Assembly: GCA_041650835.1 (NCBI GenBank)
Contig: JBAZKL010000001.1
Location: 765,617 to 829,616, forward strand
Source: Candidatus Omnitrophota bacterium
Lineage (GTDB): Bacteria > Omnitrophota > Gorgyraeia > Gygaellales > Profunditerraquicolaceae
Direction of reading: 5' to 3'
Length of the DNA: 64,000 nucleotides
A program made the translations under genes and the position numbers. Below, one piece after another: positions 304-64,000 of the stretch (position 1 is the stretch's first letter; the number at the start of each line of letters is the position of its first letter). The notes beneath the pieces are model-generated. The model ran no database searches, had not been told where the DNA came from, and saw only the letters and a list, made by a program, of their open reading frames with translations.

Positions 304-329
304 ATCGCGGAGATCTTTTCTATTCTGTC

Positions 330-41600: not shown

Positions 41601-41649
41601 AACAGGGCTGCCGGACCGCCTGGCACCGCCGCGCCGCTTCTTCACCCGG

Positions 41650-43780
41650 CCCTCAACCAAGGGAAGCTTAAGGGTAAATTCCAGGCCTTTGATCTCCTCA
41701 GTATAACGGTCGACATCCTCCAGTAATGCCAGGACAACCTTATCCAGGAATTCATTACTTACCTCAATACTGCCGCCGAGCAGGCGCATGGCCTTTTCGA
41801 GCCGGTATAAGGTAAGGGAGCCGGTATAGACCCTGTCCGAGAAGAACGGGGCAAAAAGAAGTATCAATTCCTGCGCCTTGAGCCCTTTACCGTCATCACT
41901 GATCTTCGTCTGTATCATCCCCTGCTTTTGGGTCATGGAGATACTTATCTTCTTCGCGCCTGCTTGAGCCGCGTTTTTAAGCAGATGATCGACCATGCGC
42001 ATAAAGTTTTTCGGAAGGATGACCTTCGCAGGCTGAGCGCTCAAACCATAACGGATATTCAACCCGGGAAATTCAGCCATTAAACGCCTGCCTTCGTCGA
42101 TCATATTCTTAATAAAGGTACTCAAGTCCACCTCTACCGGCTCGATGAGATTACCATCAGCCAAAGCCTTGATCAACGCCAGGTTCCGCTGATCCAGCTC
42201 CTCAGCGTTCTTTCGCGTGATCCGGATATCAAGCTGCATCGCCTCACGTAAAGAATCAACGCCGGACTTGATCCGTAAGATGGGAATATTCTTGACTCTC
42301 TGTTCAAGGGTATCAAGCCCCTCAAAGAATTCCTTAGTCAAAGCAAAGATGCGCATTGAGATAGGCAAAAGCACCTCTTCAATATTTTCGGCGAGGAACA
42401 TATTTGTGGTTTTACCGATCTTGATGGTTTCCTCAATAACTACTATCAAGCGCACCAGCCGCGCGGCAATAGATTCGACGACCATGATCCGGAGATATTC
42501 CAAATCGCCTGCGCCCACGCAATCTTCATTTACGCGGATAGCATCCAACTCGGATATTTTCTTTGCAGAATCGATGAGCCTCTGGATACGCGCTATTTCC
42601 ATGATTTCAGGAGAAGCATCCCCCGGAAATTCGTATTCTTTCTGCAGCGCCGCGACGAGCTCAACCTTCCTTCTCCCCAAGAAAAACAAAAGCGCGCGGC
42701 GGAGGTTAACATTTCTTACCGCAGGGATATCCAGGCCTTCTAATTCCTCAACGCTCTTTGCGGCGCGTATGGCCGATAAAAGCTTCATCACGCGTTCATA
42801 GAGGTCCTGTCTGCCGTAAAGCTGCGCCAAAAAGACTTCGTAGCACAACTCAAATACCTGATCGATCTTTTTCTCCAGCCTCCTGATAAAACCTCCCATA
42901 GGCACGACCACATTGCGGAAATGATGCGGGAGCGCATCCGCAACGTGTTTTCTCACCAGGACATCCCTGGTCAACTCCGCTTCCGCGCGCACGAGAGGAT
43001 CGGGATCTTTCAAGAGCACAAGCACCAAAAGCGCGGCGGCCTCAAAATTCACATCACGCAGATCTATCGCGAACTGCTTACGCTCATCGATGCTTCCTCC
43101 CCGGGCAAACGCGATAAGCCGGCGCTTGACGTTTTTCTGCTCAAGATGCGCTGTTAATAAGCATAAACACTGGAATCTCTTAACAGGCGCGGCTTGCGGA
43201 TAATCGTTAGCGCATCTTTCCAAGATCGCCTCAAGCTCGCTCGGCGTTGCTTTTATCGCGACAACCTTGACCTTAATATTGTCGCCGATCTGCGCTGTCG
43301 CCCATTTTCGAAGCTGTTTGTTACCGGCATTCGGACGCGTATTAAAATATATCGAGAACTCAAAATGCCCTGCCTGTGTCGGCTGTATGATGATCTTTAT
43401 CTTAAAAACATTCCCTTCGAGGCCTGCGGGTGAGAGCTCTTCTTCTTTCCTTAGCTTTTGGCCTTCCGAATCCATATACATGCCTACTACTTCGACCTCA
43501 TCATGGGAGACCCTGCTTTTGGCATTCGACCAGACATCAACGATCAAATAGTCTTCGTCCAACAAACTTTCAAATTCTTTCTTGGTTATACAGCGGTCCA
43601 GCTTAACAAAGGCATAGCCGAAAATACGCTGGCCGATGATTATTTCGCCTTCCCGGGCGGTTTGCTGGTCGGCGATCTCGGCTTCCATGCTTATGTGCCC
43701 CGCGGAAAATACCAGCGGTTTTTGCCCATCGCCTAAAACCGGAGAGCTCGCCTCCTGCTGCCAGCTGCGCGATCCCACTA
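41650..43780 (-). CDS. Sensor histidine kinase-like protein with HEAT/ARM repeats and a C-terminal HATPase_c domain. Possible PilZ-like N-terminal segment.
   Basis: Reverse translation of 41931-41996 gives MVDHLLKNAAQAGAKKISISMTQKQGMIQTKISDDGKGL (N/G1 boxes). HEAT-like LLKDPDPLVRAEAELTRDVL. N-terminal GEIIIGQRIFGYAFVKLDR...MDSEGQ. Confidence 0.4.
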
Positions 43781-43789
43781 ACGCGCCCC

Positions 43790-45840
43790 GGCTGAACCCG
43801 CCATAGCGGATCTTCATATACGCTGCCAGGTTATTAGCCACGCCCCATGCCTGGGCATCACAACCGCGGGGCCAATGGGAATAATTCCCGTCAAGTATTT
43901 CCGAGACGCTCCCCACCCCGGCTACCGACAAATGTTCATCGATCTCTGCGAAATAGGGAAGAACGAAACGGATACTCTCCAATGAATATTCATGCGCGGT
44001 GACATACGCCAGAGCCCAATCCCCGAAGAGGTGCGGCCAGGCTGTCCCGTTATGATACGCCGGCTTTCTTTGAGTATCCTCTTCCCCCTCATAATAACCC
44101 CTATAAGGGAATACAGAATGAGAACAGGTATCCTGCGACAAGGTCCGAAGTGCCGCAGGCACGACTAATTTCTCTTTTACTATTTCAACCACGCTCTTTT
44201 GCTGTTTCCGGGAAAGCAGGTTATACTGCGAAAGAACAGCGATAAGCTGGTTCGGACGGATCGCGGCGTCTTTTTTTGCGCTGGAAACCGCCTGATGAGG
44301 ATATGCTTCCAGGGTATCGGCAAGATATCCTTTTTCGGTGAGCCAGAAATATTCTCTAAAACTGTGACGTATCTTTTTGGCGGCAACCATATAATTTTGG
44401 GCTTGAGCGCTTTCTCCTATTTCTTCAAAAAGCTTTGATATGTATAAAACACTCTCATACCAGCGCGCGTTATTCTCAACGGTATAGCCTTCCCGGGGAG
44501 TACAAGCCGGATAATTCGTATCCATCCAGGTAAAATGACTCGGCGACCAGATCAAAAAGGTTTCCTGGTCCATGCGTATCCCGTTGGGAGTGCCATGGCG
44601 ATACCCCTCAATTATTGATGTCATGATCTCAAGGATGATCCGTTTCCCTGCTGTCTCAAAAAGGATAGCTTTATCTCCTGTTGCCTCGATATAACTTCTC
44701 ACGGAGAGGATATACAAAAGCGGAGCATCCACAGTATCATAATTTTGCGCGGTCTCACCGGCAATGATGTTCGGAAGCATTCCTCTATCTTCAAATTTAC
44801 CGAATGCCATCAACAAACCTTTGGCAATATCGTGCATTCCGGCAGCCAGGATCCCGTCGAAACAAATAAAGGTATCCCTGCCCCAATCAGAGAACCAGGG
44901 GTAGCCGGCAAGCACGGTATAGAACTTATCGCGCTTGGCGACGAACGGCCATAACCCCAGCACCATTTTCTGCACAAACGCGTCTTTACGCGCGGCAGGG
45001 TCTTTAACTTTGCGTATTCTTTCCAATTGAAGAAGGCAATTATCCTCGATCATCGCCTGTGCCTGGGCTTCATTAATATCTTTCTCTTCAGTTAAAAGGT
45101 CTTTGCTGGCAAACACAATATTTGTTGATCCTTGTTCGGTAAGGACAGCCGTGAAGAACCCCGGGCTGTAACTATCGCTGGCATTATCCTGGCCCCGCTC
45201 TCCTTCAATGGGATTAAAACCATAATGCCATTCGGGGCTGAATTGATAGCTCCCCGCGGTAGCCCACATCCTTATCCCATCAAACCCCGGATACCAGTTT
45301 TTCCAATCATCGCTGATCGGCCATATTCCAAAGCCTTTTACGCTTTCGCCGTCTTGTATCGGAAAATGCTTGCCCGACCACCAGGAAACTGCGCCATCCC
45401 AATGCTTGGCTGTTTCATGATGCAGGCGCATCTCTAAATCGGGCCTGATGAAAAGATGGACCTGCTTGATACCCGGCGTCATAGCCGCGACATGGTAATT
45501 AAAAAGGAACCTGTTCGCGCCTTCTTCCAGGACGGCAGTTTTAACGATCACAACCTGCTGGCCGCCCTCAATGGTGAGCACAAATGTCCATTGCGGCAAA
45601 GGATACCGCTGGAAGTGCGCGAACGTATTCATATCGAGATGGAAGGCTTTTTCCTGCCCGTCATAGACGAGCGTTACATCTTCGACGATCCCTCTAAAAA
45701 TAACCCTCCGCGACTCATCCGGAGCCGACAGGATTAAATTTGCCTGAAAGCCGTCATACTTGCTGGTATACCCCTGGGTTTCAATGGCCAGCCCCATCTG
45801 ATGGCGCGCCAGAGGCCGGATAGGCAAGCGTAAAATACTT
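43790..45840 (-). CDS. Glycogen debranching enzyme (bacterial/archaeal GDE N-domain plus amylo-alpha-1,6-glucosidase six-hairpin domain).
   Basis: Reverse translation: GYPWFSDWGRDTFI (44874-44909), AYHNGTAWPHLFG, CDAQAWGVANNLAAYMKI (about 43800-43845). The gene begins just below the upstream TAA at 45849-45851. Confidence 0.55.
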
Positions 45841-45848
45841 CCCCGGCC

Positions 45849-48740
45849 GTTAGAGAGAGTGACCGTATTATGCGGGTAGAGATCAAAAACATCTTTCTTT
45901 AACCGCAGCGACAATTCGCCTTCCTCAACAACCTCACTCCATGCTTCCAACACAGGCATGACTTTCAGGTGATACTCCTGCCGCAAACCATTATCCCCTT
46001 CCCATCCGTTATTTTCCCGTTTACCGATCCATAAAAAGCTGACTGAATATCTTCCCGGCTCAAGCATAGAGATCATAGACAGATATTCCGACAAGTCCCT
46101 GACCGGCAATGAATGCGCGTAGGTCTCTTTACCGCTTTTCTCATGGCGCAGGTAGACCACGAACGGATGCGGGTTCCTGAAAGCCAGAGAACATCCGTAA
46201 TGCACTAATACCTCTTTGTTCTTGTTCTCCTCCCAATCCCACTCAACGGTCTGCTTGCGCGCATCCAGGTCACAGACACTGATCTCTGAAAAAGAGGAAG
46301 CATAAACTTGCCTTTGCTGAACAGGAACATCGCTTTCCTTGGCAATAACACGGATACGATACCAATCCGTATACTTCGGATACTCCTCTCCCTCGGCAAA
46401 TACTCCGGCGCGCAATTTATAGTCACCCGGCTCTAATTCATGGATAATGGTAGAAAGAATAGCTGAACGCTTTCCTTCCCCGTTACGGTAAGAAGAAACA
46501 TGCGGTTTATTCAACCCTGAATTTTCTTCCATAATATCGATATTAAAGGTTTCATCCATCGTGAAATAGACTACCTGCCCTTCCTGCACCACGACTTGCG
46601 TTCCACGGAAGCCTTCCCAATCCCATACTATGCCGCCGGCAGGTATCTCGCTTTTTTCCAGGCGCAATACCGCGACCTGTCCGGGGGCCAGGTCAAATTT
46701 CATGCGCGGCTCTTCATAGAGGTATTCAACGCCGCTTATCAGCTCTTTAAAAAGGAAGCGGTGGGCCAGAGGAATACCCATGTACCAATAGGTGATCGGC
46801 ACATCGAGCGTTTTTTGATCATTACTGAAGTTCGCCGCGATTATAAGGCTGTTATTTTGATAATGCTTAACGAAATAAACCAGATGCTCTTCATTATAGG
46901 GGGTAAGATTGATCATATTGGAATTACCGACCGCGGGATTCTCTTCCCTGATCTTAACAAAGCGCTTAACCCATGATGAGAGGTCAACCGGGCCGCATTC
47001 CTTAGTCCCCCAGTCGGAACAGACAGGCCTGCCGGCAGCATCATGCGTTTCTTGTTTTATATTCGCGAATGTACCGAATTCTCCCAGGCTGACCAACGCG
47101 GTCTCTATCCGGGGGCCTAAAAGGAGCATGCCTAAGAACGCGGGGCCTAATAGCTCAATAATGTATTTCTGTAATTCAACGCTGTCTTCCTGAGTAGAGA
47201 TGCCGGCCAAATATTTAAACATCCCCCAATATTCTTTAGACCAGCGATAGCTGTCGTGGGTATCGACAACCGTATAACCAAATTCCCGTGAAATACCGGC
47301 AACATCATTGATAAAATCCCTCAGGAATTTACCTTTTAAATCAAGGACAAATGAATATTGCAGGAACCCCAGGCTGATCAAACTGAAATAGGCGTGAGGG
47401 TCAGCGCCCAACTGTTCAACAATAGGCAGAATATCATTCTCCTGAAAGTATTGCGCGATCCTCTCCCAGAGATTCGTATGATAATGGACCCGGCCTGAAG
47501 TCCCGCAGCCATATTTATGCAGCGCGTCAAGCCGCCAACCCGAGATACGCGCGGCGTTCCCGTGCGTATAGAAAATGTCGGGAAATATGCGCCCCCAGTA
47601 TTCAAACGGCTCAATTCTGGGGTCTTCTTTACCTTTTAAAACCTGTTCGTGAATACTCAATTCATCCCAGGAAGCAAGATCCCCCCACAGCGGGCTTAAG
47701 ATATTTCCTTTTTTACCCTTTTCAAAATAACCTCTATGGAAAGCGGCATCAACGCCGTCCTGGGCCCGATAGAAAGGAAGATCGCCCAAGATCAAAATAC
47801 CCTTTTCCATACAAGTACTTAATAATCCATAAAACTGTTCAAAACTAATAAACTGTTCGTAAAGAATGGAATTCATGGCGCAGTCGCCTTCCTGGCAATG
47901 CCAAAAATCCTCTAAAGGATACGAAATGCCGCTGATCGATTTACCCGGGTATTGCTGATTGCGCTTCAGGACCAACTCCGCGTATTCCCTGGCCTGCTTG
48001 AGCTGCGCGAATTTCATAAAAGCCGTTTTTCTTCTTTCGCTGCCGGAATTCATAAGGTCATAGAGGCGCTCGCTCAAGAACCCGCCCTTATCTTCAACAC
48101 ACTGCCAGTCGATAAAACAGGGATGCAGCGCGTACACGGAAAGCGGCGCGAACGGGCTTTCTCCGGATGTCGGGAAGAACGGAGAAAGCATAAACACATT
48201 TTTACCGGTCTGTTCAAACCTATCCAGGATAAAATCCCTGATCCCGCTCCAATTGACCGCGAAGCCGCGGCAGGCCACATCCGGTAAAAACACATAGGAG
48301 GGATGAAAAGTTTCCGGTTTGATCCAGGTCGGCATCCGGTAAACCTTAAGCGTAACGTTTGAACCGACCCACTTCGCCTCTTTCTGGTGCTTAGTTTGCG
48401 CAAAACCGGTAAATTCAAAATGACCTGGTTTAGAGACCAAAAGTCTCATCCGGGCGCTAAAAACACCGGGGAGCAGGTTGTTCTCTGAGTCGTAAGATTG
48501 AGCTATGCTCTCCGGAGGAAATTCAATGGAATGCCACACTTGAGAATCGGCATTCGTTTGAATGCCCGCGGTCAAATCTTCGATATTTGCGACAGGCGTG
48601 GTAGTAACCGTTACCTCTATTTCGATCGTATTATTGATACCTATGGCGGGCTGGTCCCAGGGAGCAGGGCTTATTTCAACGCGGGTAACAACAGGCAATT
48701 CGGCTGTTACCGCCGAAGAACTAACCATGCGCGGCGGAGC
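45849..48740 (-). CDS. malQ: 4-alpha-glucanotransferase (GH77 amylomaltase, MalQ-like) with an N-terminal beta-sandwich (CBM-like) domain and C-terminal extra domains.
   Basis: Reverse translation: start MLLRAPPRM at 48738-48740. FHPSYVFLPDVACRGFAVNWSGIRDF...MLSPFFPTSGESPFAPLSVYALHPCFID (48111-48190). FYTHGNAARISGW (47538-47573). Stop ...HNTVTL-TAA at 45849-45851. Confidence 0.55.
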
Positions 48741-48845
48741 GCGCAGAAGCATATTTTCAGCGACCAATTCAGCTGTCGCAGGGAAATCTAATTGCGCCAA
48801 CGGCGCTGACGCGATAAACACGGCCGTTGCGGTGATAAGGTCCCC

Positions 48846-48938
48846 ACCAGCCACGCCCCGTTGGAAAATAACAGTTGCTCCCCACCAGCCACGGAAGGTA
48901 AAGCATAACTGTAATAGTGATATTTTCCAACGGGGCAC
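48846..48938. repeat. 93-nt intergenic repeat element with a 16-bp inverted repeat (copy 1).
   Basis: Exact or near-exact match to 52703-52795. Stem cgccccgttggaaaata ... tattttccaacggggc encloses a loop of about 50 nt. Lies between the SAS-domain gene end and the GH77 start. Confidence 0.7.
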
Positions 48939-48959
48939 GGAAGGTAAACCAAATCGCTT

Positions 48960-51900
48960 GAACCGCAACGGCCGCGATGATTCCTTACTGATACTTGAAC
49001 TGCTTTGCTGCGGCACCGAAGATGCAAGAACCGCATTCAAAGGGCCTTGTTTTTCTTGAGGGATATTTTTCGAAAATATTCTCTGACTCACCGGCGATTT
49101 ATCAGGATTTAGTATTTTAACCCCCGTCCCGGTATCGATTTCCGCCAAGAATATATCCCCGGTTTCGGCCTTCCCTTGAGCAGAGAGGGAAAACAGCCGA
49201 GACGACCTTAAAGCAAAGCTCTGCCCATAAGCAGGGACCACTTTCTTCATGTTCGCGCCGAACAGAACAAATAAACTCCTGACATTCCCCGGTTTATTCT
49301 CAAGTGAGGGGAAAGTCAATTCCAAAGCGCCGGGATACTTACGCGAGCGGTTGACCACCATACAATAGGCGTTATTACCTATTCGCTCGATGATCTCGCC
49401 ATATTGCTCCATGGGGATGCTTTGCCAGGAAGATATCAGGTTATATTTTTGCGGCGGCATGCGCAATAAAACTTCACCGCGCCTCAAGCCCTGCATATGC
49501 CCGGCCACAATTTCAATATCGGCCACATTGTTCTTCGCGTAATGTTTTCCGGCGCTTTCGCGGCTTAATTTATAGACCCAATGCGGACGGTCGAAATTTT
49601 GTTTTGCTTCCCAATCTTCTTTTGAGAAGATCTGGACCTCAGCCGGCACGCCTTCAATATTTATAAATACAACATACTCATTCCACTGGGCCCTGATGCC
49701 GGCGAATTCTTTATTATGATGCTTATATTCGGGATTTTCTTCATTCAGCTCCTGCAAGGGGTAATTATTTAATAAATAGCTCAGGATATGATAGACATCG
49801 TGCTTCGTCCTGCTGACAATAGTGATCCCGAAAACATCCTTTAATCTCCTTAAGTCTTTATTATATTCTTTCTTGGTCATTGCCTTTTTCCAGCAGGTAT
49901 AAGCGTCTTTTACGCGGGAAAACATTGCGTCGGCATAAACGCCGCTTTGAGCTAACCGGTAACGCATTTCAACTGATCTTTCCAACAGATAATCCTGGGC
50001 TTGACCAAAATCCCTGCCTCCCCTGATCTCCCTGACTTCATTAACAACATCAGCATAAATTTCAGTATAAGAAAAAACGACTTCCCTGAATTGCCGGTCT
50101 AATCCTTCGAGCCTTAAGAATTCAGCTAAGGGGGCGTAAATACAATACACTTCATTCGCCCAGGATATCCGCTCCTCGACTGTTTCCAGGTGCCTGCCGG
50201 AAGCGAGTTTATCCGCCAGGACTAAGACTATTCCATGAACACCTGACAGCATTAAGATCATGCAGATATATTTTTCCAGGGCATCATCGCCTTTTACGAC
50301 CCGTAAAGCAGGCAAAGAATTAAAACGCTGCATCAAGAGGACATAATCCTTGATCGTTTTATCGCTCATGAATCTCTTCTTTAATGACTGGCTTAAGGAA
50401 GGGGCTTCTCTTGTGGGATTAATATGCGTCAAGAGCGCGAAAAGCGCTTGAGGCTTAAATGAAACACGGTCTATGAATTCAACATAGATCTCCAGAACAT
50501 CCAGGATATGGGTAAGCACGCCTAACCCGGCTTCAAAATAGGCTGACGCGTAACGAGGCACGCTGATAAGACAATAAACCTCAATTGCCGCTTCGATATC
50601 AGCGGCTGATAAATGCGAATAAGGGATCTTAGAACGCAGATTGATCAGTGAGGCAAAAAACCGGAAGGCAGATCTATCTTGTTCCGCTAAAGGCACTGCC
50701 AGCGCGCCTGAAAGCGATTTATTCTCTATCTCCAAAAATAACAGGATCAGGCGGCTGGTAAGGCTTGCTGATTGTTTTTGTTTACCCAGGTCAAAATAAG
50801 CGGGATGGATAATAATGGTCTTTGAAATAACATCTAAAGCGATACATTTTCCCCCGGTTGATACAAGAGAGGTTGTGATCTCTAATGCCCACACGGGAGG
50901 CGCGCGCAACGAAAGAGGAGCGAACTTATCCAGGCTATCCTTAATAACCTGGTAATGTTTTTCAGAATAGAAACCGGCAGAAAGGCCGATATCAAAACCT
51001 TTCAATTGCCTTTTCAGTAAAATCCTATTCTTCCCGTAAACAGCTTCGGCTTTTGCTTGCGCCTTTTCCGAGACCTTAAGAGGGCTGCCCGAGCCCGGGG
51101 CATTTGCCGCGACTTTATTCCTGCCGCTTTCTTTAGCTTCATAAAGGGCGATATCCGCCCGTTCAATAACATCCTTATGACTGTCATCAATTCTTTGAGG
51201 ATCAAACTCACTTACCCCGATACTGACGCTCACGCTGATCTCCAAGCCATTATTCTTAAACACATATGCTTCTATCATCTGCCGGATCTTTTCCGCCTTC
51301 AGGGCGGCATTCGTTAATTTACATGACAAAGCCAGGCAGAACTCTTCCCCGCCGTAGCGGAACAGCGAATCATTGGTACGGATCGAGTCCTGGATCAAGC
51401 GGGAAACCTCTGCCAGGACAACATCACCCATCGTATGGCCATAGGTATCATTGACTCTCTTAAAGAAATCTATATCAAGCATCAGGATAGAAAGTTCATC
51501 TTTGCCTCTTCTGACGCGGGCGGTCCATTTCGGCAGCTCTTCTTCAAGGTACCTGCGGTTATACGCGCCGGTTAAAGGGTCCCGTATCGCTGATTCCCGC
51601 GCCGCTGCCTTCTCTATCAACGCTTTACCTAACTGCTGCCTTAAATGCCGGCCCATCCAAAGAGAATTAAGGTATTCACTCACCAGGAAGTAGGGAACTA
51701 AACCGACGACAAGAAGATACAAGAAGCCATGCGCCGGGCCGTACGGCAAAGAAATGATCATCGTGAATGCTTCCAGCGCCAGGACATAGATATAGCCGCC
51801 CAAAGTATAAGACAGGAAACTTCCTATCCTGTCGATTACGGCCGCAAGCCAATGCGTAGCCTTATCCGTTAAAGATACCCTGCGTAAGGCCGCGGAAACG

Positions 51901-52300
51901 ATCTTATTGTTTATTTTGTGCAGGATCAATTGGGGCGCCAGGAATGCGATCATAACCCGATACAAGAGGTATTCCTGAGAAGCAGCGATGACCGCCGGAT
52001 GGAGGACAATATTTTGAGCGGCATCCAGGAAACAAACGCTGCCTTCATCAACCGCCTTTCCTTCATTATAAGCCGCGATTTCCTTCTCCAAACTGCGTAC
52101 GGCATATGCTTGCATGGATATAATTGCCGCGAGCAGGAGAGCCGTTACAAAAACAAACGGCAAATTAACAAACTCGAACTTATAGAAGCTGCATAAGGCG
52201 CCCAAACCAACGCAGGCGCATGACCACAACCAAGCATACCGCTTTATCTTGCCTGAAGTAATTATCGCGGAGGGAATTGATCCTCCCTGATCTTCAAGCG
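48960..52300 (-). CDS. Membrane-anchored GGDEF diguanylate cyclase followed, in the same apparent ORF, by a degenerate HD-like region and a RelA/SpoT-type (p)ppGpp synthetase (SAS) domain. May be two adjacent genes.
   Basis: Reverse translation: N-terminal hydrophobic helices; DPLTGAYNRRYLEEEL...MLDIDFFKRVNDTYGHTMGDVVL...RYGGEEF (51344-51364) ...ADIALYEAKESGRNKV; later FGITIVSRTKHDVYHILSYLL and PAEVQIFSKEDWEAKQNFDRPHWVYK (49566-49640; vEvQIRT...HW.YK synthetase signature). Confidence 0.45.
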
Positions 52301-52335
52301 GGCTGCCGGCTAAGACGGGAAGGACCTGATTATTG

Positions 52336-52599
52336 TTACCCGTTAAGAGACTCTCCCTCAAAATATATGGGAACATCTTTAAGCTGCCCCTGAAGAGCTC
52401 CCCTGACCTGCTCGGCGCATTCATAGGTAAGTTCATGCCAACCCCCCGGAGACTTTCCCCACGCGTACCCCAAAGGCGAGAGGATGAATTCAAAGACTGT
52501 TTGGCCGTCGGGAACGCAGGAATAGACGACCACATCGCGGGAAGATAAAACCCTAAGCTGTAAGACCTGTAACTGACTGAATTGATATTGACTAAGCAT
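52336..52599 (-). CDS. Small hypothetical protein (87 aa) with a canonical RBS.
   Basis: AAGGAGGT, 6 nt, then ATG. This ORF is listed in the supplied track (MLSQYQFSQLQVLQLRVLSSRDVVVYSCVPDGQTVFEFILSPLGYAWGKSPGGWHELTYECAEQVRGALQGQLKDVPIYFEGESLNG). Stop TAA at 52333-52335. Confidence 0.6.
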   Translation of the reverse strand: MLSQYQFSQLQVLQLRVLSSRDVVVYSCVPDGQTVFEFILSPLGYAWGKSPGGWHELTYECAEQVRGALQGQLKDVPIYFEGESLNG

Positions 52600-52702
52600 C
52601 CGTTACCTCCTTGATTAATATTATGGGCTGCGGAGTAAAGGCCCCCCATTCCTCGACCTGGCTCGGAATCCCTCAAAGAGGAACCCTGAGCTCGTCGAAG
52701 GG

Positions 52703-52795
52703 CCAGCCACGCCCCGTTGGAAAATAACAGTTGCTCCCCACCAGCCACGGAAGGTAAAGCATAACTGTAATAGTGATATTTTCCAACGGGGCACG
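52703..52795. repeat. 93-nt intergenic repeat element with a 16-bp inverted repeat (copy 2).
   Basis: Matches 48846-48938. Lies between the end of GT-B gene A and the start of the small ORF, in an AT-rich spacer at 52600-52900. Confidence 0.7.
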
Positions 52796-52910
52796 CAAGA
52801 GGTAAGCCCGAAACGTCACTCCGCAACCCATCTATATTTGTAAACGTTTTCATTTGAGTGTAAAAAAATACTTCATCGATCCTATTTTTTGAAGCGATAG
52901 CCGACGAGGA

Positions 52911-55052
52911 TACAAAGACGCGGTAATCAGGATTGCTCCAGACATAGATATCCAGTTCGTTATTGACCGATTTCATTCCCCGCGCGTACGAGCGTACCGT
53001 AAACCCTAACTCACCGCGCGGTAATTCCATACGCTTGCTCACCTTGATAATATTCCCCGCCGCCTGCTCCCCATCCATGCGCTCCGCCTGCCACGGTTTA
53101 CCGTCGTATGCGCCGTACCATACTTCCGCTTCCACATCCGTTGCGCTTAATCCCGCCTTGCATACCACCTGCGCCTTCACCTCGTACTCATTGCCCCCGA
53201 CGTGCTCCACCGTAACATTCTTCACCGCGGCTATCTTCGCGTGCTTTCTCACGAATTCAAACACCCGCCCGTAATCCAACGCCATTCGTTTACTCGTCAC
53301 CTTCTGATGCGCGATCGCGTACGCCTCGCTCATCATCCCCACCCACCGCTGGTCACGATGCTCCACGTACCCGTAATATAACTGGCTGGCTTCTTTCAAA
53401 TACTCACCCAACAACTGCTGCGCCCGGCTCCTGAACAACTCCACGATCTGCTTCTTCTCCTCATACCACTCAGGCAACTGCATCAACCGCACCTTATCCT
53501 CAAACGAATGGTGCGTCCCTTTGAACACGTTCATCAGCCACCCATTCATCCCGTGCATGATGTATTCCAAAGCCCCGCCCGTTGCCGTCGAGATGACCAA
53601 ATGCCCGTTCAAACCAGCCTTCTGGTCAGCCACACTGCAGCCCTCCATCGTCGACCACGGAACCACAACCCACACGTCGCTTGCCTGCACCGCATGCCTC
53701 ATCACTTCCGTCCCCAACCGTTCCACAAACACAAATCTACCCCGAAGGTCTTCTCTACCCATCAGTTCCTTCAACTTACCCACCCAGCACTTCCCTATCT
53801 CATCACGCGCGATTCCCCCCATCAGCACGTTCATCCCCAGCCCAAACTTCTTGCCCTGCGCTGTATCATATTCCTTGTCCCTGTCCCCGCACACCCACTC
53901 TATTATCTCAAATAAGATCCGCTGCTCCTGGTATGAGATCACCCGGCTCACCATCCCCACCAACGGACGGCTGATCTCACTAAAACTCACTCCCGCCGTC
54001 TTCTTCAAATACGCCTGCAGGTCTTCTTTCGCTTCCTGCCCTGCTTTAAAGATCGATTCCCCGCACACCCGCTGCTGCACCCCCCTGGCTTTTGCTTCCA
54101 GCTCCAATAACCGCTTATTTTTCCATTCCATTTCATCTGAGCCGTTCAAAATGCTCACTATCTTATACTTATGGTCCCCTAAAATGATCATCCTGATCAC
54201 TTCTTTGTTCTCCTCAGACACCGCGGTCACCACGACCGCCCGTTCTGCCAGCCGCCTCATGAGCGACACTTTTCCGTCCTTGATGATCCAATCCGGCACC
54301 ATATCCGCACCGATCTTCTCCTTTAACCATCCGATATCGTGGTACGTCGGCAGTAACGAAAGATCCGGCATGTGCACCGTCAACACTACCGCCAGATCCT
54401 CATAGATACTCTTCTCTCCGCGGCCGCTGAAATATTTCACGTCGTTCCTACGCGCTACTTCCACGAACAATAACTGCGCGTCGTTCAATCTCACCACGTC
54501 AGGTGACACTCCCAGCGCTTTGAACAATTCCACAAATACCCTCCCCATGAACGCCAGCTGGATCGCGCGCTCCGGCTCCTCAGGATACAACTCATTGAAG
54601 ATCTCAGGCTGGCACGCTAATATCACCGGTGTGCCGCTGCGTTCCACTACATAAAAACTCACCACGTATTTCCTCTTATTGAACCTTACTTCTATCCGCA
54701 GCTGTTCTTCTGTTTCCCCGTTCTTCACCCATAACGGCTCTAACTCACTCTCCGTATCCCAATGCACCCGCAGCAGGTTCCCGTTGTCACGGTAGTACGC
54801 GTATAACGGCATTAACCCCACCGCGGCAACTTGCGCCTGCGCGTACCCGCTCCAGTTGTCTACCGCCAAATATCCCAGTTTACCCATACCCATCCCCTGC
54901 TGGATACGCTCATCTTCTATCTCCTTCAAATACCCTTCCAAACTTATATCTGCTACGAATTCTCCCCGCCCTATCATCCACCTTAAATTGTCGTCCGCTA
55001 CTTCTTCCCATCTGCTTAATGGCGATCCGCTTAATAATGAAACCGTTTTCAT
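52911..55052 (-). CDS. Alpha-glucan phosphorylase / glycogen synthase-like GT-B glycosyltransferase (copy A) with a C-terminal CBM-like beta-sandwich.
   Basis: Reverse translation: start MKTVSLLSGSPLSRWEEV at 55050-55052. N-terminal GMGMGKLGYLAVDNWSGYAQAQVAAVGLMPLY (the K-GGLG/sGGLGiLAGD region of GT5/GT35). C-terminal SDVWVVVPWSTMEGCSVADQKAGLNGHLVISTATGGALEYIMHGMNGWLMN (GT-B C-terminal Lys/TGG motif). Then VKAQVVCKAGLSATDVEAEVWYGAYDGKPWQAE (CBM-like). Confidence 0.5.
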
Positions 55053-55099
55053 TCCGCTGTAAAAATTTTTCTCCAAAGGCGAAGCGCAAACTCTTGTTT

Positions 55100-56300
55100 G
55101 CTGGGGCTGCCTGATCGATGCCTGTTCCGGGATAATAAGGCTGCCGTAGGCAATAGCGTCATATTCTTTTAATAAGACCGACGGTGATCTCCCTGCCAGT
55201 AAAATATTTATTTTTTCGTCATACGCGCCTTTTTTATCTAATTCCGCCTTGGTGACAATATCAACAATAATGATCAGCTTATGGTCGCAATTGATCCGGA
55301 AGAATATACGCCAATTATTTGAATCGATACGCGCGTGGTACAGGCCGAAAGAACTATTATCGATCTTTAAAGAGCTCTTCGACCTTTTAGTCCCCAGCTG
55401 CTTTTTAAGCTGTTCGCCTAAGTCATTAAGCAACTGTTCTTGCTTCCACTGCGCGTTACTGCCGTTATTCCTCTTAACGAGGTAAACCTGAAAAGTATTT
55501 TCCGCCGCAGCGAGATCCTCAAGCTTACCCCACGCCTGGAAAACCACCTTAAATATATCGGGTTCAAAGCCGGCGAAACGCTCAACGATGGCGTCTGTAA
55601 TATGTTTTTCAAGAGGATCCAGCCACAGGTGTTGAGCCAGGAGCCTTGCCAGGCGCGTTAAAGGTAATTCTCCGCAAACTGCCGAGAGAAGTTCAACCAT
55701 GTTCTCCTGGTTAGCCATGATATAGGCCAACGCGATCGGCTCCGTCAAATTCGCGGCATAAGCTTTTGCTTGTTTCTTCGAAACGGCTGCCACGGGTTTT
55801 TCCCGCGCAGCTTCCCGGCACACAGCAACTTTCGGCGTTTGAGCAACGCACACATCGGCGGCAGCTTCAGACAAAACCTGAGCCACCGCGGGTAACAAGG
55901 CTTTCTGAGGGGCAGGATTATTAAGAGCATCAAGCTGCCGCTGGTCCCTTTCCATATCGCCATTGATAACAAAGACGTTGCCTTGCAACTGCCTTATCCC
56001 CGCCGTCATGATCTTTTCTTCCGACTGCGCTTGCCGGATATCCTTCATAAGTGAGTCGCGCTGCTTCACCAGATTCTTCCAAAGGCGGTCTTTTATCCTT
56101 ACTTCTTTCTGTTCCGCGGTAGGCCAAAAGAAGCGCAGGGCCTTTTCCCAAACGGATTGCTTTTCAGAATAAACGCGTATCTTTTCCCTTAGATCAGCCG
56201 TCTTTGAACGGATCCTGTCAGCTTCACCGGATTTCGTCCTATGTTCTGCCTTTAAAGAAATAACGTTCGCGCGGAGATCTTCCAATTCTTTATTCCTCAT
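55100..56300 (-). CDS. Coiled-coil-rich segment between GT-B copies B and A. A separate small gene or genes, or the C-terminal tail of B.
   Basis: Non-codon-checked reverse translation is rich in heptad-like E/K/R/L runs (...ELEDLRANVISLKAEHRTKSGEADRIRSKTADLREKIRVYSEKQ...). Confidence 0.2.
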
Positions 56301-58628
56301 GACCAAAACTTCCTCGATCTCATCTCTTTCTTTCTCGAGTTCCCCTATCCGGGTGAGCAGGGCATCTTCATTCACCGCAGATGACGCTCTTTTTGCCTGC
56401 CCGCGCCCATCTTTGACCGGCGACGACGCATGGCAAACACGGTAATCCTGTCCGAATTGCTGGCTCCAGGTATATATCTCCAGGTCAGGATCAACTTCTT
56501 CCATACCCCTGGCATAGGCCCGCGCGGAAAATCCGCAATCACCGGGAAGCAGCTTTACTTTAGTCGTACCGTTTATAGTCCCGAACTCAGTCGCTGCCAG
56601 CTCCATGTTCACCGCGTTCCACGCGGAACCGTCGTATCTTCCGTAATATATCTGCATCACCACTTCATCCACCCCCAGGTCGGCGCCTAAGACTTCCGCG
56701 GAGACTTCATACTCATTTTCCTGCAGGAGTTTAACATCAAGGTTCCTGATATAAGCGATACGCGCTTCGCGCCTGACGTATTCGAACATCCGTTCGTAAT
56801 CCCTGACCATGCGTTCAATGGATACTTTTTGATGAGAGATCACATACGAATCCTTCATCATGCGCAGCCAGCGTTCATCCTGGTTTTCCGTATAGTTATA
56901 ATATAACCGGGAGGCTTCCTGTAAATATTCTCCCAATAAACGCTGCGCGCGGGAGCGGTACAATTCGACGACCGCCTTCTTTTCCGGGTATTTATCCGGC
57001 AACTGCATCAACTGCACGACTTCTTTGAACGAATAGCCTGTTCCCGCGAACACATCCATGAGCCAGCCGTTAATACCATGAATAATGTATTCCAACGGGC
57101 CGCCGGTAGCGGTAGCGATATTAGGCTTACCATTGAACGCGGGCCGGTGATCCGAGGTACCGCAGGCTTCCCGGGTGGAACGCGGCATGCTCACCCAGAC
57201 ATCGCTTGCCTGCGTTGCCCGCTTCATGATCTCATAGCCTGAACCTTCAATAAAAACGAACTTACCGAGAAGTGACTCCTCCTGCATTAATTTCTTGAAT
57301 ATATCGATCATCTCCACGCCGAACTCATCCTGTCCGACACCGCCTACCAGCACATTCATCGCCAACCCCGGGAACTCTCCCCACGGGATAGAATATATTT
57401 TATCCCTGTCTCCGCAGATCCAATTCAGTATTTCATACAATATCCTTTGCTCTTTGTACGCGACGAGCCTGCGGACCAATCCCACGAGCGGCCGGGAAAT
57501 ATCGCTAAAACCATGCCCGGCTATTGCTTTAAGGAACTCATTTAATATTCCTTTATTCTCCTGGCCGATAGTAAAGAGGTCCAGGCCGCTCACCTCTTCT
57601 CCTTTGACGAGAAGCTCTGCTTCTAATTCCTGCAATTTCCTGCTTTTCCATAATTTCGGGTCAGAACCGTTCAATATACCGGTAATTTTCTTGCTGAATT
57701 CAGGCAAAATAACCAGCTTCGTCACTTCCTTATGTTCGTTTGCCACGGCGTTAATGATGGTTGAGCGTTCAGCGATACGCCGAGCCATATCCACCCGTTC
57801 ATCGCGCACGATCCACGCGGGGACCATATCTTCACCGATATGATATTTCAACCACCAGATATTATCGTACGTCGGCAGTGCGGCTGCTTCAGGAGTATGT
57901 GTCGTCAGTACCACTCTGGTGCGGTTATGAGGGCTCTGTAACCCTTTGTTCCTGAACAATTCTATTTCATTGCTGCGCGCGACCTCCAGGAAAAGTAATT
58001 GCGGTTCATTCAGCCGCAGAATATCAGGCATAACCCCTAAGACGCGGAACAATTCAACATACACTTTTCCCATAAAAGCATATTGCTTGACGCGCTCCTG
58101 AGCGTCTTTCGGATACAAGGCCGCGAATATCTGCGGCTGATACGCCAAGAGCACCGGTGTCCCGTCACGCTCCATCATATAAAAAGTCACCGGATAACTC
58201 CTGGAGTTTAATTTCGGCTCTATCATAAGCTGTTCCAGCTTATCGCCCCTGCGTATCATGACGGGCTTAATAATATCGGATTCTTCTTTCCAGTTGATCC
58301 AGAAACGGTTCTCCACCTCCTCAATTTCAATGATATCCTCGCCCTTATCATTCTTCTTTACGACCTGCTTTTTTTCCATTACTTTAAAATTAGCATATAA
58401 CGGCATCAACCCCATAACATCCATACCTACCTGGCCGTAACCGCCGAATGTTTCCCCTGCCAAAAAGCCCAACCCGCCAGAAGCTAACGCGTTCTGCCAT
58501 TGCTGGTTCTTGACCTCGGGTAAAAAGGCTTCCAGGGATACGTCCGCGACAAACTGGCTCTTGGTTACGATCTCCCTTAAGCGGTCATGCGCGATATTCT
58601 GAGCGAGAATAGCGCTCGATGAACGCAT
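56300..58628 (-). CDS. Alpha-glucan phosphorylase-like GT-B glycosyltransferase (copy B), a diverged paralog of A and C.
   Basis: Reverse translation: start MRSSSAILAQNIAHDRLREIVTKSQFVADVSLEAFLPEVKNQQWQNALASGGLGFLAGETFGGYGQVGMDVMGLMPLYANFKV (the aSGGLGfLAGE signature of the alpha-glucan phosphorylase family). C-terminal CBM-like AYARGMEEVDPDLEIYTWSQQFGQDYRV at about 56400. Confidence 0.5.
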
Positions 58629-58673
58629 TGCGACCAGCGCGCCTGTTATTCTATCGGCGATAGCCGACGAGGA

Positions 58674-60815
58674 TACAAAGACGCGGTAATCAGGATTGCT
58701 CCAGACATAGATATCCAGTTCGTTATTGACCGATTTCATTCCCCGCGCGTACGAGCGTACCGTAAACCCTAACTCACCGCGCGGTAATTCCATACGCTTG
58801 CTCACCTTGATAATATTCCCCGCCGCCTGCTCCCCATCCATGCGCTCCGCCTGCCACGGTTTACCGTCGTATGCGCCGTACCATACTTCCGCTTCCACAT
58901 CCGTTGCGCTTAATCCCGCCTTGCATACCACCTGCGCCTTCACCTCGTACTCATTGCCCCCGACGTGCTCCACCGTAACATTCTTCACCGCGGCTATCTT
59001 CGCGTGCTTTCTCACGAATTCAAACACCCGCCCGTAATCCAACGCCATTCGTTTACTCGTCACCTTCTGATGCGCGATCGCGTACGCCTCGCTCATCATC
59101 CCCACCCACCGCTGGTCACGATGCTCCACGTACCCGTAATATAACTGGCTGGCTTCTTTCAAATACTCACCCAACAACTGCTGCGCCCGGCTCCTGAACA
59201 ACTCCACGATCTGCTTCTTCTCCTCATACCACTCAGGCAACTGCATCAACCGCACCTTATCCTCAAACGAATGGTGCGTCCCTTTGAACACGTTCATCAG
59301 CCACCCATTCATCCCGTGCATGATGTATTCCAAAGCCCCGCCCGTTGCCGTCGAGATGACCAAATGCCCGTTCAAACCAGCCTTCTGGTCAGCCACACTG
59401 CAGCCCTCCATCGTCGACCACGGAACCACAACCCACACGTCGCTTGCCTGCACCGCATGCCTCATCACTTCCGTCCCCAACCGTTCCACAAACACAAATC
59501 TACCCCGAAGGTCTTCTCTACCCATCAGTTCCTTCAACTTACCCACCCAGCACTTCCCTATCTCATCACGCGCGATTCCCCCCATCAGCACGTTCATCCC
59601 CAGCCCAAACTTCTTGCCCTGCGCTGTATCATATTCCTTGTCCCTGTCCCCGCACACCCACTCTATTATCTCAAATAAGATCCGCTGCTCCTGGTATGAG
59701 ATCACCCGGCTCACCATCCCCACCAACGGACGGCTGATCTCACTAAAACTCACTCCCGCCGTCTTCTTCAAATACGCCTGCAGGTCTTCTTTCGCTTCCT
59801 GCCCTGCTTTAAAGATCGATTCCCCGCACACCCGCTGCTGCACCCCCCTGGCTTTTGCTTCCAGCTCCAATAACCGCTTATTTTTCCATTCCATTTCATC
59901 TGAGCCGTTCAAAATGCTCACTATCTTATACTTATGGTCCCCTAAAATGATCATCCTGATCACTTCTTTGTTCTCCTCAGACACCGCGGTCACCACGACC
60001 GCCCGTTCTGCCAGCCGCCTCATGAGCGACACTTTTCCGTCCTTGATGATCCAATCCGGCACCATATCCGCACCGATCTTCTCCTTTAACCATCCGATAT
60101 CGTGGTACGTCGGCAGTAACGAAAGATCCGGCATGTGCACCGTCAACACTACCGCCAGATCCTCATAGATACTCTTCTCTCCGCGGCCGCTGAAATATTT
60201 CACGTCGTTCCTACGCGCTACTTCCACGAACAATAACTGCGCGTCGTTCAATCTCACCACGTCAGGTGACACTCCCAGCGCTTTGAACAATTCCACAAAT
60301 ACCCTCCCCATGAACGCCAGCTGGATCGCGCGCTCCGGCTCCTCAGGATACAACTCATTGAAGATCTCAGGCTGGCACGCTAATATCACCGGTGTGCCGC
60401 TGCGTTCCACTACATAAAAACTCACCACGTATTTCCTCTTATTGAACCTTACTTCTATCCGCAGCTGTTCTTCTGTTTCCCCGTTCTTCACCCATAACGG
60501 CTCTAACTCACTCTCCGTATCCCAATGCACCCGCAGCAGGTTCCCGTTGTCACGGTAGTACGCGTATAACGGCATTAACCCCACCGCGGCAACTTGCGCC
60601 TGCGCGTACCCGCTCCAGTTGTCTACCGCCAAATATCCCAGTTTACCCATACCCATCCCCTGCTGGATACGCTCATCTTCTATCTCCTTCAAATACCCTT
60701 CCAAACTTATATCTGCTACGAATTCTCCCCGCCCTATCATCCACCTTAAATTGTCGTCCGCTACTTCTTCCCATCTGCTTAATGGCGATCCGCTTAATAA
60801 TGAAACCGTTTTCAT
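58674..60815 (-). CDS. Alpha-glucan phosphorylase / glycogen synthase-like GT-B glycosyltransferase (copy C), identical to copy A.
   Basis: 58654-60853 is an exact direct repeat of 52891-55090. The identical plus-strand shadow ORFs at 53521/59284, 52963/58726 and 54856/60619 confirm this. Confidence 0.5.
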
Positions 60816-60999
60816 TCCGCTGTAAAAATTTTTCTCCAAAGGCGAAGCGCTTAATATATTTTCAATATAAACGGCGGCTTCTTCAGTTGCCTGGCGGACG
60901 GACAAAACATCCATATCGACGACATAGGCGCCGGTTAAATCAGGCTTCTGATAAACGCTCAAGCTATTATGATCTTCGATATATTGCGGTTTGACCCCT

Positions 61000-63900
61000 A
61001 AATTTTCGCTTTGTTTTTCTATGGAGATATCGCAATAGATTTGAATTATGGTAAATCCTTCTTTTTCAAATTTTGCCACCTCATCGGGCGTCAGAGGATA
61101 GGTCAAAACAAGATTGATCCCGTTGTAGCGTTTATGCGCGTGCTCGGATCTTGCCAGGCTGCTGTAATAATCAAGCGCGGCACCCCATATCTGAGGGCGG
61201 CGGGTCAACATATAAAAAGCCTTCATCCTTACTTTATTTTTCTCGATCATTTTTGTCATGTCCCGCACCAGATATCCGCCTTCTACCTTGGCCGTAGTGC
61301 TGGTAACGACGCCGTCTTTATCGATAAAACATATCGGCTCCTGCGTATAATCTATCCTCTGGACAAGGAAATCTATTAAATGCCGCAGCGCGTATCCTGA
61401 AACAAATTTCGCGAACAGATCCCGGTCCACGGCGTCGCTAAACAAATACTCAGGATCATAACCGGCATTGCCGCAATCATCGACCAATTGATTGGTCCAT
61501 TCCCTGAACATAAAACCGGGATAAATATACCGGGAAACCGCCTTGCCTTCCGCGATCTTTCTTTTTGAAGCGATCGCGCGCGCTATTTCTTTCTTTCCGG
61601 AACCTTTCACCCCGCTATAAACCACGATAGACGGCTTTTCCGAAACCAGCGCGCCGGGAATATCCGCAAGCACCGTATTCACCGGGACAGAAACTATAGC
61701 GGTAGTCCCCTGGTTCAATCCTTTACTATTGAATAAAACATACCCTCCCTTATCCTCAATTTCCTTCTTCATCGAAGAAAGCCCTAAGCCTTCTCCGGGA
61801 ATACCTTCATCGGTATGAAAACGCTCACTCGGCCGAGCGATCTTTCCCAATTGTTCAGGCGTCAACCCCCTGCCGTTGTCGCTGACCCGGTAAACTATCT
61901 CTCCTTCATCCCAGTCGACGCAAACGCGGATGACTATCTCAAGAGGGACCTGAGGATTCCTGTATTTAATAGCGTTGGAAATAAAATTGGTGAGGGCGTT
62001 ATACGCCGGGTCAGGATAAGTAATGAACGCTCGACCAGTAAGGTTGTCGTCAACCAGCACCTTTATAAAAGGTTCCGCCGTTACGACCTGCTGGGATTTT
62101 ATTTCCTCCCGGAAGGACGCGGCGATATTCTCCACGAACTTGCCGACATCGATACAATCTATGGAAATATCAAGATTGCTGAATATGAGGGCCATTAAGC
62201 GTTCCGCGGTATCGGTATTCTTTAAAAGATACTCCAACGGGGACTGCAGCGCCTCATAGGCCGCAGGTATTCCTTTAAGCAGGCGCAGCTGCACCTGGAG
62301 CTTGCGGTTAACAACCCTGAACTCGTCGCTTGCTTCTTCTATCAGCGCATACTGGCCGATCAATTCAGATAATTCAGATAATTCAAAAGGTAAACCGTTC
62401 TTTTCCTTTTCTTTCAAAGCAACTACCTTATTATGGAACAACATTATCTTCGCCCGCAGCGCGTCTGCATGTTGAAAGATCTCCGAAAGGAGCCCGACCT
62501 TAATATCAGCTTCTGCTTTCTTAACCAGCGGGGCATACAAAGAAACAGGCAGATCTACCGCACTTTCATACAAAGCTTTTATTACCGCTTTCTCTTTATA
62601 TCCCGGCTCTAAGCTATCGACCGCAGCGCGCATGCGGAAAGATACCGTTTGATAGAGCGGATAGGGCAGCCCGCTTATGGCCTCATCAAGAAAGGAGTAA
62701 GCGTCTTTTTTATGGATGAACTTCGCGCAGGTGTAAAATACGCCTTGCGCGAAAGCGTCTTTCATGAGCGGATGCTCTTCTTTGCTCATTTTAACGGCCA
62801 GCATCTTTAATCTTCTTTCCAACATGAGGGCGAAGTTACCGTACGCGTAAAGCAAATTCTTAACATGATGCAGCAATCCCGCCTCCACCCTCCTGAGCAA
62901 ATAGTAGCCATGCGCTATATTTTTCTCTACCGGAGACGCCGCCTGGGCTTCAGGACGATACAGCATATTCTTCATAATAGATGCTCTTACGGAAAGCGGC
63001 AGAAGCGCTAAGTTGCCTGATTTACGGATATCGGTCGAGCGGATACCGAAGAGGTAAAGTTCAGAAATCAATGATACTTCGTAAGGGGTTTGCGTGAGAT
63101 CTTTTTGCAGAAGCGCGTAATCTCTATCTAAACGCACAGCGATCTTAAAGGCGACATCATCAAAACGGTGCTGATATTTCCTTAAAAGGTAATCGAAATT
63201 CCTGGCCCATTTAATATAGGTATCGCTGCCGCAGGCGACATAGAACGTTGCCGGCCGGGCCGAAGGATTGGCTTCCAATATCCTGAGCGCGTTTTCCGTC
63301 CCGTAATCATCCGGATACTCTAAGCTCAATAACGAAGTCTTGATCAAGGGATCGAAAATATCCGACATCGCTCGCGCCATTTCATGCCTAAGAGAAGCGT
63401 CTGTCTTTTTGCTTTTCCAAACCACGCCATCCGGGTCGGGGGCGTTTGTCCCGACAGGGGCCATAAATGCCACATACTGTTTCGATGAACCTCTTTCTTT
63501 TTCCGTAACAAAAACCAGGGTATCCAGCAATAAATCGATGTGGTCGAAATGCGCCGGGTCGAAGGTCCCGGGCAAAGCGACCATAACCAGCTCTTTCGAT
63601 GTATCAGCGTCTAAGGATTGTGCTTCTGCTGAAGACATTCTTACCCAGGGCGCTAAAGAAACATCCCCCGCGTAAACGCGCGAAAGGATAGTCCTCAAAT
63701 TATGATTAACCTTAAGCTTTATATCCTCAAGCAGCGAGGCATCACTGTCGCATAAGCCTTTTTCCATAGCGGCTATTTCCCGGTTAAACCTGATGATCAT
63801 ATCAAGCATCATTTCCAGCGAGCGTTCATCGGCGCGCCTGCCGGTAGGGACAAAAGAGCCGTTCTTCCAGATATAATTGGCGCCTCGTTTATTGGTAACC

Positions 63901-64000
63901 CTTAAAGAAACTTCAGAAAGGCCCTTACCCTCATAAACATCAAAAGACAGCACATTCTTATAGGTCTTTAACTGCTGCTTACGGTAATTGTATATGCATA
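61000..64000 (-). CDS. Carbohydrate/nucleotide-sugar enzyme region: kinase-like segment followed by an HxGH-type nucleotidyltransferase-like motif. The gene or genes run off the right edge.
   Basis: Reverse translation of 63240-64000 gives ...YEGKGLSEVSLRVTNKRGANYIWKNGSF...SKELVMVALPGTFDPAHFDHIDLLLDTL (T/HxGH cytidylyl/adenylyltransferase-like motif) ...QYVAFMAPVGTNAPDPDGVV. Confidence 0.3.

Follow-up and report, generated by a model that had tools for sequence, protein, structure and literature searches.

How does a 2.2-kb segment of coding DNA come to stand twice, base for base, within a single bacterial reading frame? This question is raised by a contig of Candidatus Omnitrophota bacterium (GenBank assembly GCA_041650835.1, contig JBAZKL010000001.1), of which positions 765,617 to 829,616 were analyzed; this whole stretch of 64,000 nucleotides is called the window below, and all coordinates refer to it unless another locus is named. 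The segment encodes an enzyme-like module of the GT-B type, here named A, which recurs as an exact copy, A', with a diverged paralogue, B, between the two. In this study, the repeat was found to lie inside one giant open reading frame (ORF), and it probably reflects a real and recent in-frame duplication of a single A module, to which we give a probability of roughly 60%.

The exact repeat and its reading frame

The two copies of A are identical over 2,194 bp (52894-55087 and 58657-60850). The original prediction had placed exact repeats at 52891-55090 and 58654-60853; the repeat itself stands, but its limits do not, since the first three and two of the last three of those bases differ. The same prediction took perfect identity to mean a very recent duplication, gene conversion or an assembly effect, and the identity over 2,194 bp upholds that statement. 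Judged by its length and exactness, the match cannot be a product of chance. The copies start 5,763 bp apart (3 x 1,921 bp, or 1,921 codons) and are thus in frame; each corresponds to 731 whole codons, with the remainder split over two boundary codons, and the giant ORF stays open across all four repeat junctions.

The edges of the repeat are abrupt. Beyond both ends, identity between the flanking sequences is at once random (17-34% per 100 nt), neither microhomology nor a target-site duplication was found at the four junctions, and Tandem Repeats Finder (TRF) detected no tandem repeats in the window. A 31-nt similarity over one junction (52871-52901 versus 61547-61577, 81%) is at chance level and was set aside. 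The copied block amounts to one module and no more. It takes in about 28 N-terminal residues to which nothing in B corresponds, and it stops within a few residues of the start of B. The layout is R-M-R (R, the repeat; M, the sequence between), not R-M-R-M.

Six-frame translation gave one minus-strand frame (3-63998) that runs through 21,332 codons without a stop and continues past both ends of the window; all other frames are interrupted by stops over the 64 kb, and an off-frame translation of 734 codons contained 67 stops. No long ORF appeared on either strand in the ORF listing because ORFs running off the ends were not listed. Across the window, promoter-like and terminator-like sites showed no excess over shuffled sequences. 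The locus had been described as a tandem triplication of genes. Three homologous units do exist, but no stop codon lies between them, and three separate genes are ruled out by the 64 kb without a stop and by the promoter-like and terminator-like sites, which are not in excess. Nor is the arrangement strictly tandem, the actual order being A, B, a linker of 430 amino acids (aa) and A'. A diverged copy does lie between the repeats, as had been claimed: B is identical to the duplicated copy at 349 of 732 aa. The repeat is an intragenic module repeat in a giant ORF, and the best explanation of the window is that it forms part of the interior of a single giant gene, 64 kb or more in length and coding for a protein of at least 21,332 aa.

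Pfam domains were detected along the frame, including HATPase_c, PF08323 (starch-synthase catalytic), GT1, GGDEF, RelA/SpoT, GH77, GDE_N/GDE_C, a second HATPase_c, TPR, a PEP-utilising domain, iPGM/metalloenzyme, HD, YcaO, a dephospho-CoA-kinase-like P-loop (below threshold), YkuD, HAD, NusG, HD and a methyltransferase (positions of those near the repeat are given in Table 1). Domains that usually belong to separate housekeeping or signalling proteins, for example NusG, iPGM, YcaO, YkuD and the debranching enzyme, are here fused in one frame. A crude hydropathy scan of the frame gave about seven hydrophobic segments. The linker between B and A' contains no Pfam domain and no confident domain of another kind; SMC models matched it at E ~0.005, far below threshold. 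Linkers rich in serine (SSSP, SSSAIAD, ASSPVKD) separate domains and turn up repeatedly where modules meet, for instance at aa ~1775-1800 and ~2525-2545 of the frame, and also in the related giant proteins P0002, P0005 and P0018; these may be conserved linker or processing motifs.

Table 1. Positions of the features discussed, in window coordinates; amino acids are numbered along the giant frame from window position 63998 downwards.
Feature	Position	Strand	Remarks
Part of the giant ORF	3..63998	-	21,332 codons without a stop; Pfam domains throughout
Histidine-kinase-like ATPase domain, upstream of A	61680..62012	-	PF02518, aa 663-773
Module A, divergent GT-B, first exact copy	58657..60850	-	~aa 1051-1781; PF08323, 76 bits
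Module B, canonical paralogue, directly after A	56379..58652	-	~aa 1783-2540; 48% aa identity to A
Linker of ~430 aa, B to A'	55092..56378	-	weak coiled-coil (SMC-like) similarity
Module A', second exact copy of A	52894..55087	-	~aa 2972-3702
GGDEF diguanylate-cyclase domain, downstream of A'	51114..51590	-	PF00990, E 3e-41, aa 4137-4295
RelA/SpoT-type nucleotidyltransferase domain	49566..49919	-	PF04607, aa 4694-4811
Hairpin copy 2	52703..52799	-	starts 95 nt from the A' edge; in frame, stop-free, 15-bp arms; loop TTACCTTCCGTGGCTGGTGGGG
Hairpin copy 1	48847-48943, nested in outer hairpin 48814..48981	-	99% identical to copy 2

Fold, motifs and codon usage of the repeated module

A profile built from A, B and one homologue was searched against 1.84 billion cluster representatives and matched 1,331 proteins at E<=0.001, of which 115 reached E<=1e-30. 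Long multi-domain proteins or fragments are frequent among the top matches, and the more distant homologues are annotated as alpha-glucan family phosphorylase. The C-terminal half of the module resembles alpha-glucan family phosphorylases by sequence; the N-terminal half matched PF08323 with 76.3 bits (gathering score 22.7) in two stretches, which are the two copies of A. An AlphaFold2 (AF2) model of A, built on 24 sequences (pLDDT 90, pTM 0.88), consists of two Rossmann-like halves followed by a C-terminal beta-sandwich of about 100 residues. When this model was compared with the PDB by Foldseek, the top 25 matches were glycogen/alpha-glucan phosphorylases, and starch synthase IV was also a strong match (6gne, TM 0.78 normalised to the target). 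The GlgA family models (TIGR02095, NF0019xx) reached 34 bits where 328 are needed, and the Pfam scan of the frame gave no match to PF00343. In the column of the lysine that binds pyridoxal phosphate (PLP), the sequence P0176, the sole classical GT35 member of the alignment, reads GTSGMK and three Bacteroidota-type members read GTSGMT; B and almost all close relatives carry Arg (GTSDxR), and A carries Lys in the degenerate context SVADQK. The module has TGGP where GT35 sequences show DGW.

The description of the units as alpha-glucan phosphorylase-like GT-B proteins was borne out for the fold, both by a profile search of the PDB (9l6i, E 7e-12) and by Foldseek (E ~1e-36), but was not supported for the family: TIGR02094 gave 63 bits for A and 103 bits for B, which misses the cut-off of 191.7, and the PLP-lysine column holds Arg in B. 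According to the model, the module is of the GT-B type and closest to alpha-glucan phosphorylases at the fold or superfamily level. Membership in GT35 is not established by the sequence, and the clade may be one of phosphorylases or of synthases. The motifs said to be shared, GGLG and Lys/TGG, were recovered in part: TGG occurs in both versions, GGLG only in B (SGGLGFL, where the duplicated copy reads GKLG), and Lys only in the duplicated copy.

In an alignment of 28 homologues, 61 columns show at least 90% conservation; B retains 60 of these and A 46. The changes in A affect several motifs (GGLG to GKLG, TTHTPE to TVHMPD, RR to SR, YK to YQ, and EACGTSDxR to EGCSVADQK), and A is less similar than B to every outside homologue, the closest ones showing 44-45% identity to A and 52-54% to B. 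These comparisons suggest that B is the conserved version and is probably active. A has changes in its glycine loop and in the THTPE and EACGTSDxR motifs, so that it has likely lost its catalytic activity or catalyses differently.

The codon usage of A is also aberrant. G-ending codons account for 0.50 of its codons, against 0.29 +/- 0.025 in 731-codon windows of the same ORF, and the GC content of third codon positions (GC3) is 0.68, against 0.52 in the ORF. GTG (0.69 versus 0.23), ACG (0.78 versus 0.31) and GCG (0.67 versus 0.35) are all enriched, and the chi-square distance in codon usage is 289, against 44 +/- 10 for a background whose maximum is 73. The shift is limited to the A copies; the frequency of G at third positions (G3) climbs over the first ~60 codons, with no step at the edge. 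In the related locus L007, a single B-like module (7292-9133) has a G3 of 0.44, against 0.28 in its own ORF, and this module is all that the L007 ORF has in common with the part of the giant ORF that lies in the window. The similar excess in an unduplicated module weakens the codon anomaly as proof of chimerism. The pattern looks like a property or a history of the module itself, and would fit domain shuffling rather than an assembly accident. A foreign donor for A was also considered and was dropped, nothing closer than ~45% identity having been found. Opposite the A modules lie two antisense ORFs of 294 aa on the plus strand (53521-54405 and 59284-60168); these are most likely a by-product of the bias of A towards G-ending codons, which removes antisense stops.

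Origin of the repeat

We favor a real, recent in-frame duplication. A piece of 2,194 bp, exactly one A module, would have been copied and pasted in frame about 3.6 kb downstream, into a linker, leaving two identical copies in which no substitution has accumulated yet. The locus has the marks of a recent segmental duplication, namely nucleotide-identical, in-frame copies and abrupt, non-homologous flanks. The block includes the ~28 N-terminal residues absent from B, which argues for block copying rather than conversion between old paralogues. A single copy-paste event is the simplest account; such conversion would be expected to leave flanks of intermediate similarity, none of which exist. Direct repeats of 2.2 kb would in turn be expected to allow RecA-mediated loss or gain, in frame, of the 5,763-bp unit, and the original prediction's statement that the number of paralogues varies at this locus is a reasonable expectation for repeats of this size. 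We infer that the copy is real in the organism and recent rather than homogenised, and our statements on which copy is the original and on the functional consequence have the same standing.

Several points weigh against this reading. The repeat structure and the 100% identity are known here from the assembled sequence alone, consensus polishing can homogenise near-identical repeats, and no second assembly covering the junctions was found in the protein collection, the genome representatives or the metagenome contigs. The codon usage of A is sharply unlike that of the rest of the gene, which acquisition or long-term conversion could explain. Repeats in giant genes are generally old and diverged (Nielsen & Lui 2026, bioRxiv 10.64898/2026.06.07.730766). 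Finally, six related giant-ORF loci from metagenomes (L008, L009, L013-L016) each contain a single module within +/-10 kb.

The first alternative is an assembly or polishing artefact, which we consider unlikely. In that case there would be one true copy of A, the R-M-R layout being a mis-resolved graph path or a mixture of strains, or else two near-identical copies made identical by the consensus. Exact repeats of several kilobases are a classic source of assembly errors, the authors of giant-gene studies report local assembly errors and collapsed multi-copy regions in such genomes, and an independent assembly with the same junctions is lacking in the collections searched, as stated above. An artefact would nevertheless have to produce copies that are in frame and leave the giant ORF intact at all four junctions, and the unrelated sequences flanking the junctions offer no overlap from which a chimeric join could be seeded. 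Moreover, an assembly that passes twice through an exact 2.2-kb repeat within a contig of 64 kb or more is presumably easier to obtain from long reads, which would span the repeat.

Concerted evolution, by which an old duplication would be kept identical through ongoing gene conversion between A and A', is quite unlikely. It would suit the age of A, a sequence that is old and has diverged widely (48% identity to B, with changes at 15 of the 61 conserved positions), and GC-biased conversion could yield the raised GC3 (0.68 versus 0.52). The excess in A is one of G specifically, however, and not of G and C equally, and the single, unduplicated module of L007 has a similar G3 enrichment, so that conversion is not needed to explain the composition. 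Identity also ends abruptly on both sides of the repeat, without a zone of intermediate similarity.

That A is a mobile or laterally acquired cassette inserted twice, possibly by way of nearby hairpins or recombination sites, is scarcely credible: its codon usage is an extreme outlier in its own ORF with a shift that roughly coincides with the repeat edges, the L007 ORF shares only this module with the part of the giant ORF in the window, and a hairpin element starts close to the edge of A', but G3 rises gradually over the first ~60 codons of A instead of at the edge, the other three junctions have no hairpin, no terminal repeats, target-site duplication or recombinase were found, and the searches gave no donor-like sequence with more than 50% identity. 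A protein search with A returned one match, at 39% identity, and a metagenome scan for close relatives of A returned none. Recent in-frame duplication remains the reading that we prefer.

Hairpin elements and comparison with known systems

A 97-nt hairpin element occurs twice in the window, the copies being 3,856 bp apart. This spacing is not divisible by three, so the giant ORF reads the two copies in different frames, and neither contains a stop in its own frame. The arms are perfect 15-bp inverted repeats (4 matches versus 0.16 expected), and folding gave -55.7 kcal/mol (z -5.9) for copy 1 and -50.9 kcal/mol (z -4.9) for copy 2. The outer arms around copy 1 (48814-48833 and 48962-48981; ACCGCAACGGCCG...) complete a two-tier hairpin of 168 nt within the coding frame, with -91.7 kcal/mol and z -6.9. 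The hairpin loop carries TTACCTTCCGTG|GCTGGTGGGG. Each of the two elements in turn interrupts a further copy of this motif, both at an identical position (...CGTG^GCTGG...), and the inserted length is 84 nt (28 codons).

Two unrelated giant-ORF loci, L014 and L016, also contain the 14-mer CCGTGGCTGGTGGG, and L013 has a variant of it (about 0.003 exact matches are expected by chance). In these three loci, the motif always lies on the coding strand, in the loop of a strong hairpin whose stem has a different sequence. The loop CCGTGGCTGG(T)GGG is conserved (L013 ~8520-8585, L014 ~2540-2600, L016 ~7815-7900), and the stems differ yet pair; an automated alignment of the stems gave compensatory changes in 5 of 12 pairs. 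Across four loci with DNA, the motif is read in three frames (PWLVG, RGWWG and SVAGG), which indicates conservation at the nucleotide level. The peptide SVAGGEQ is also found in the database giant-protein fragments P0009 and P0012. The window contains no Rfam families, the loop motif was absent from viral contigs, no transposase for the element was seen, and a literature search gave no paper linking hairpins to giant genes. An attC-like hairpin was rejected, its GTTRRRY-like and RYYYAAC-like boxes being, by eye, in the wrong order. The element may be a palindromic mobile element that targets its own sequence, a recombination site, or a signal at the RNA level in giant mRNAs, and its link to the module duplication is positional only.

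Repetitive extragenic palindromic (REP) sequences and bacterial interspersed mosaic elements (BIME), as well as elements like miniature inverted-repeat transposable elements (MITE) or palindrome-associated transposable elements (PATE), are short (80-100 nt), strongly palindromic and multicopy. The window likewise has two copies with 99% identity, one of them enclosed by another hairpin. Unlike those elements, the hairpins of the window form part of a coding frame, contain no stop and differ in the frame in which they are read. Their conservation is also opposite to that of REP, with the loop kept across organisms while the stems differ.

A wider reading, which we hold to be distinctly improbable and offer as speculation, would connect these observations. 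Giant genes of the Omnitrophota type might grow by ongoing cut-and-paste of enzyme modules, and A might be a catalytically degenerate cassette, distinct in codon usage, of which copies spread within giant genes and perhaps also from one to another. The in-frame hairpins (loop CCGUGGCUGG, covarying stems, insertion into their own loop motif) might then be a new class of mobile or structural elements that mark or mediate rearrangements or act on the giant mRNA. The object under study is in any case a slice of a giant bacterial gene whose origin and growth are unexplained, and not a small gene family. If confirmed by reads, the exact duplication of a 2.2-kb module would be a case of giant-gene lengthening caught in the act, and, if real, it would provide material for changes of copy number in frame. 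The version that stands twice is the degenerate one, and this bears on whether such modules serve as enzymes or as scaffolds, and the hairpin offers a separate lead on sequence elements that are tolerated or used inside giant coding regions.

Duplication of whole modules in frame is a feature of polyketide synthase (PKS) and nonribosomal peptide synthetase (NRPS) megasynthase genes, in which near-identical stretches arise by duplication or conversion. The locus resembles them as a long multi-module ORF in which a whole module has probably been duplicated in frame; it differs in that the enzymes fused here are unrelated and of stand-alone type, form no assembly line, and include only one module type that is repeated in the visible part.

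As for the module itself, it shares with GT35 (Segatella copri glycogen phosphorylase, PDB 9l6i/20yr) the two-domain GT-B fold and the motifs GGLGFLAG, TTHTPE and (E)A(S/C)GTS...NG. It differs by showing 13-16% identity at the fold level, by its extra C-terminal beta-sandwich, by being embedded in a giant polypeptide, and by its TGGP, which is GT5-like. With GT5 (Arabidopsis starch synthase IV catalytic domain, PDB 6gne) it has in common the PF08323 N-terminal half, the structure and the C-terminal TGG, whereas it scores far below the GlgA thresholds and has phosphorylase-type motifs in its centre and C-terminal part.

Among named proteins, the closest homologues of the module come from Candidatus Omnitrophota metagenome-assembled genomes (MAGs). 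A search of 185,579 species representatives gave two matches, one in an Omnitrophota MAG of similar GC content (L006) and one in an Elusimicrobia MAG with 67% GC (L005). The window contains no phylogenetic marker, and the homologues bear on lineage indirectly, if consistently. In each of the six metagenome loci named above, the module belongs to a frame that is free of stops over the entire 12-22 kb retrieved. In P0003, a protein fragment of a relative, one complete module is flanked by the end of another and the beginning of a third, which indicates that module arrays exist elsewhere; P0003 was rejected as proof of an ancestral junction from A to B, the N-terminal remnant matching the ends of A and B about equally. 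Among 21 related loci, the largest near-identical internal repeat measures 306 nt at 91% identity (L015 6467-6772 and 8675-8980, in a giant ORF), in line with the published view that repeats in giant genes are mostly old. In a groundwater Elusimicrobia MAG with 67% GC (L001 10001-14232; also L002-L005 and L012), the module is a stand-alone gene of 859 aa, directly followed by a GGDEF gene of 512 aa and set among purine and pyrimidine biosynthesis genes. The pair of GT-B followed by GGDEF was discarded as a sign that A' holds the ancestral position, the Elusimicrobia GGDEF showing only generic similarity (28%) to the GGDEF domain that comes after A' in the window.

The best explanation of the window ORF is that it belongs to the class of multi-enzyme giants known from Omnitrophota. 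The 'Archaeovorins' contain HEAT, GT5, GT1, TPR, HATPase_c, PPDK, NUDIX, GGDEF and HAD domains, of which GT5 (glycogen-synthase-like) is the second most common type (West-Roberts et al. 2023, bioRxiv 10.1101/2023.11.21.568195). Class 1 of a later survey consists of 'multi-enzyme metabolic clusters'; PF08323 is the most frequent family listed for its sugar-metabolism module, and of the Pfam-positive long proteins, 65% contain some Pfam family more than once (Nielsen & Lui 2026). Like these giants, the window holds an uninterrupted ORF of tens of kilobases, whose 21,332 codons exceed the size of at least 10,000 aa by which they are defined, with a similar palette of domains (GT5/PF08323, GT1, HATPase_c, TPR, PEP/PPDK-type, GGDEF, HAD, HD and methyltransferase) and with Pfam families repeated within one polypeptide. 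Known giants have a membrane anchor, a type II secretion-like locus upstream and PilZ genes downstream; the ends of the present gene lie outside the window. The copies here are not back-to-back, and, in contrast to published repeats, which are old and diverged in nucleotides, a whole enzyme module is 100% identical over 2.2 kb. A giant multi-enzyme ORF of the Omnitrophota type with repeated GT5/GT35-like modules is thus a known object. The one studied here carries what is probably an unusually fresh internal module duplication, and, if real, the exact repeat would be an exception among the mostly old repeats of giant genes.

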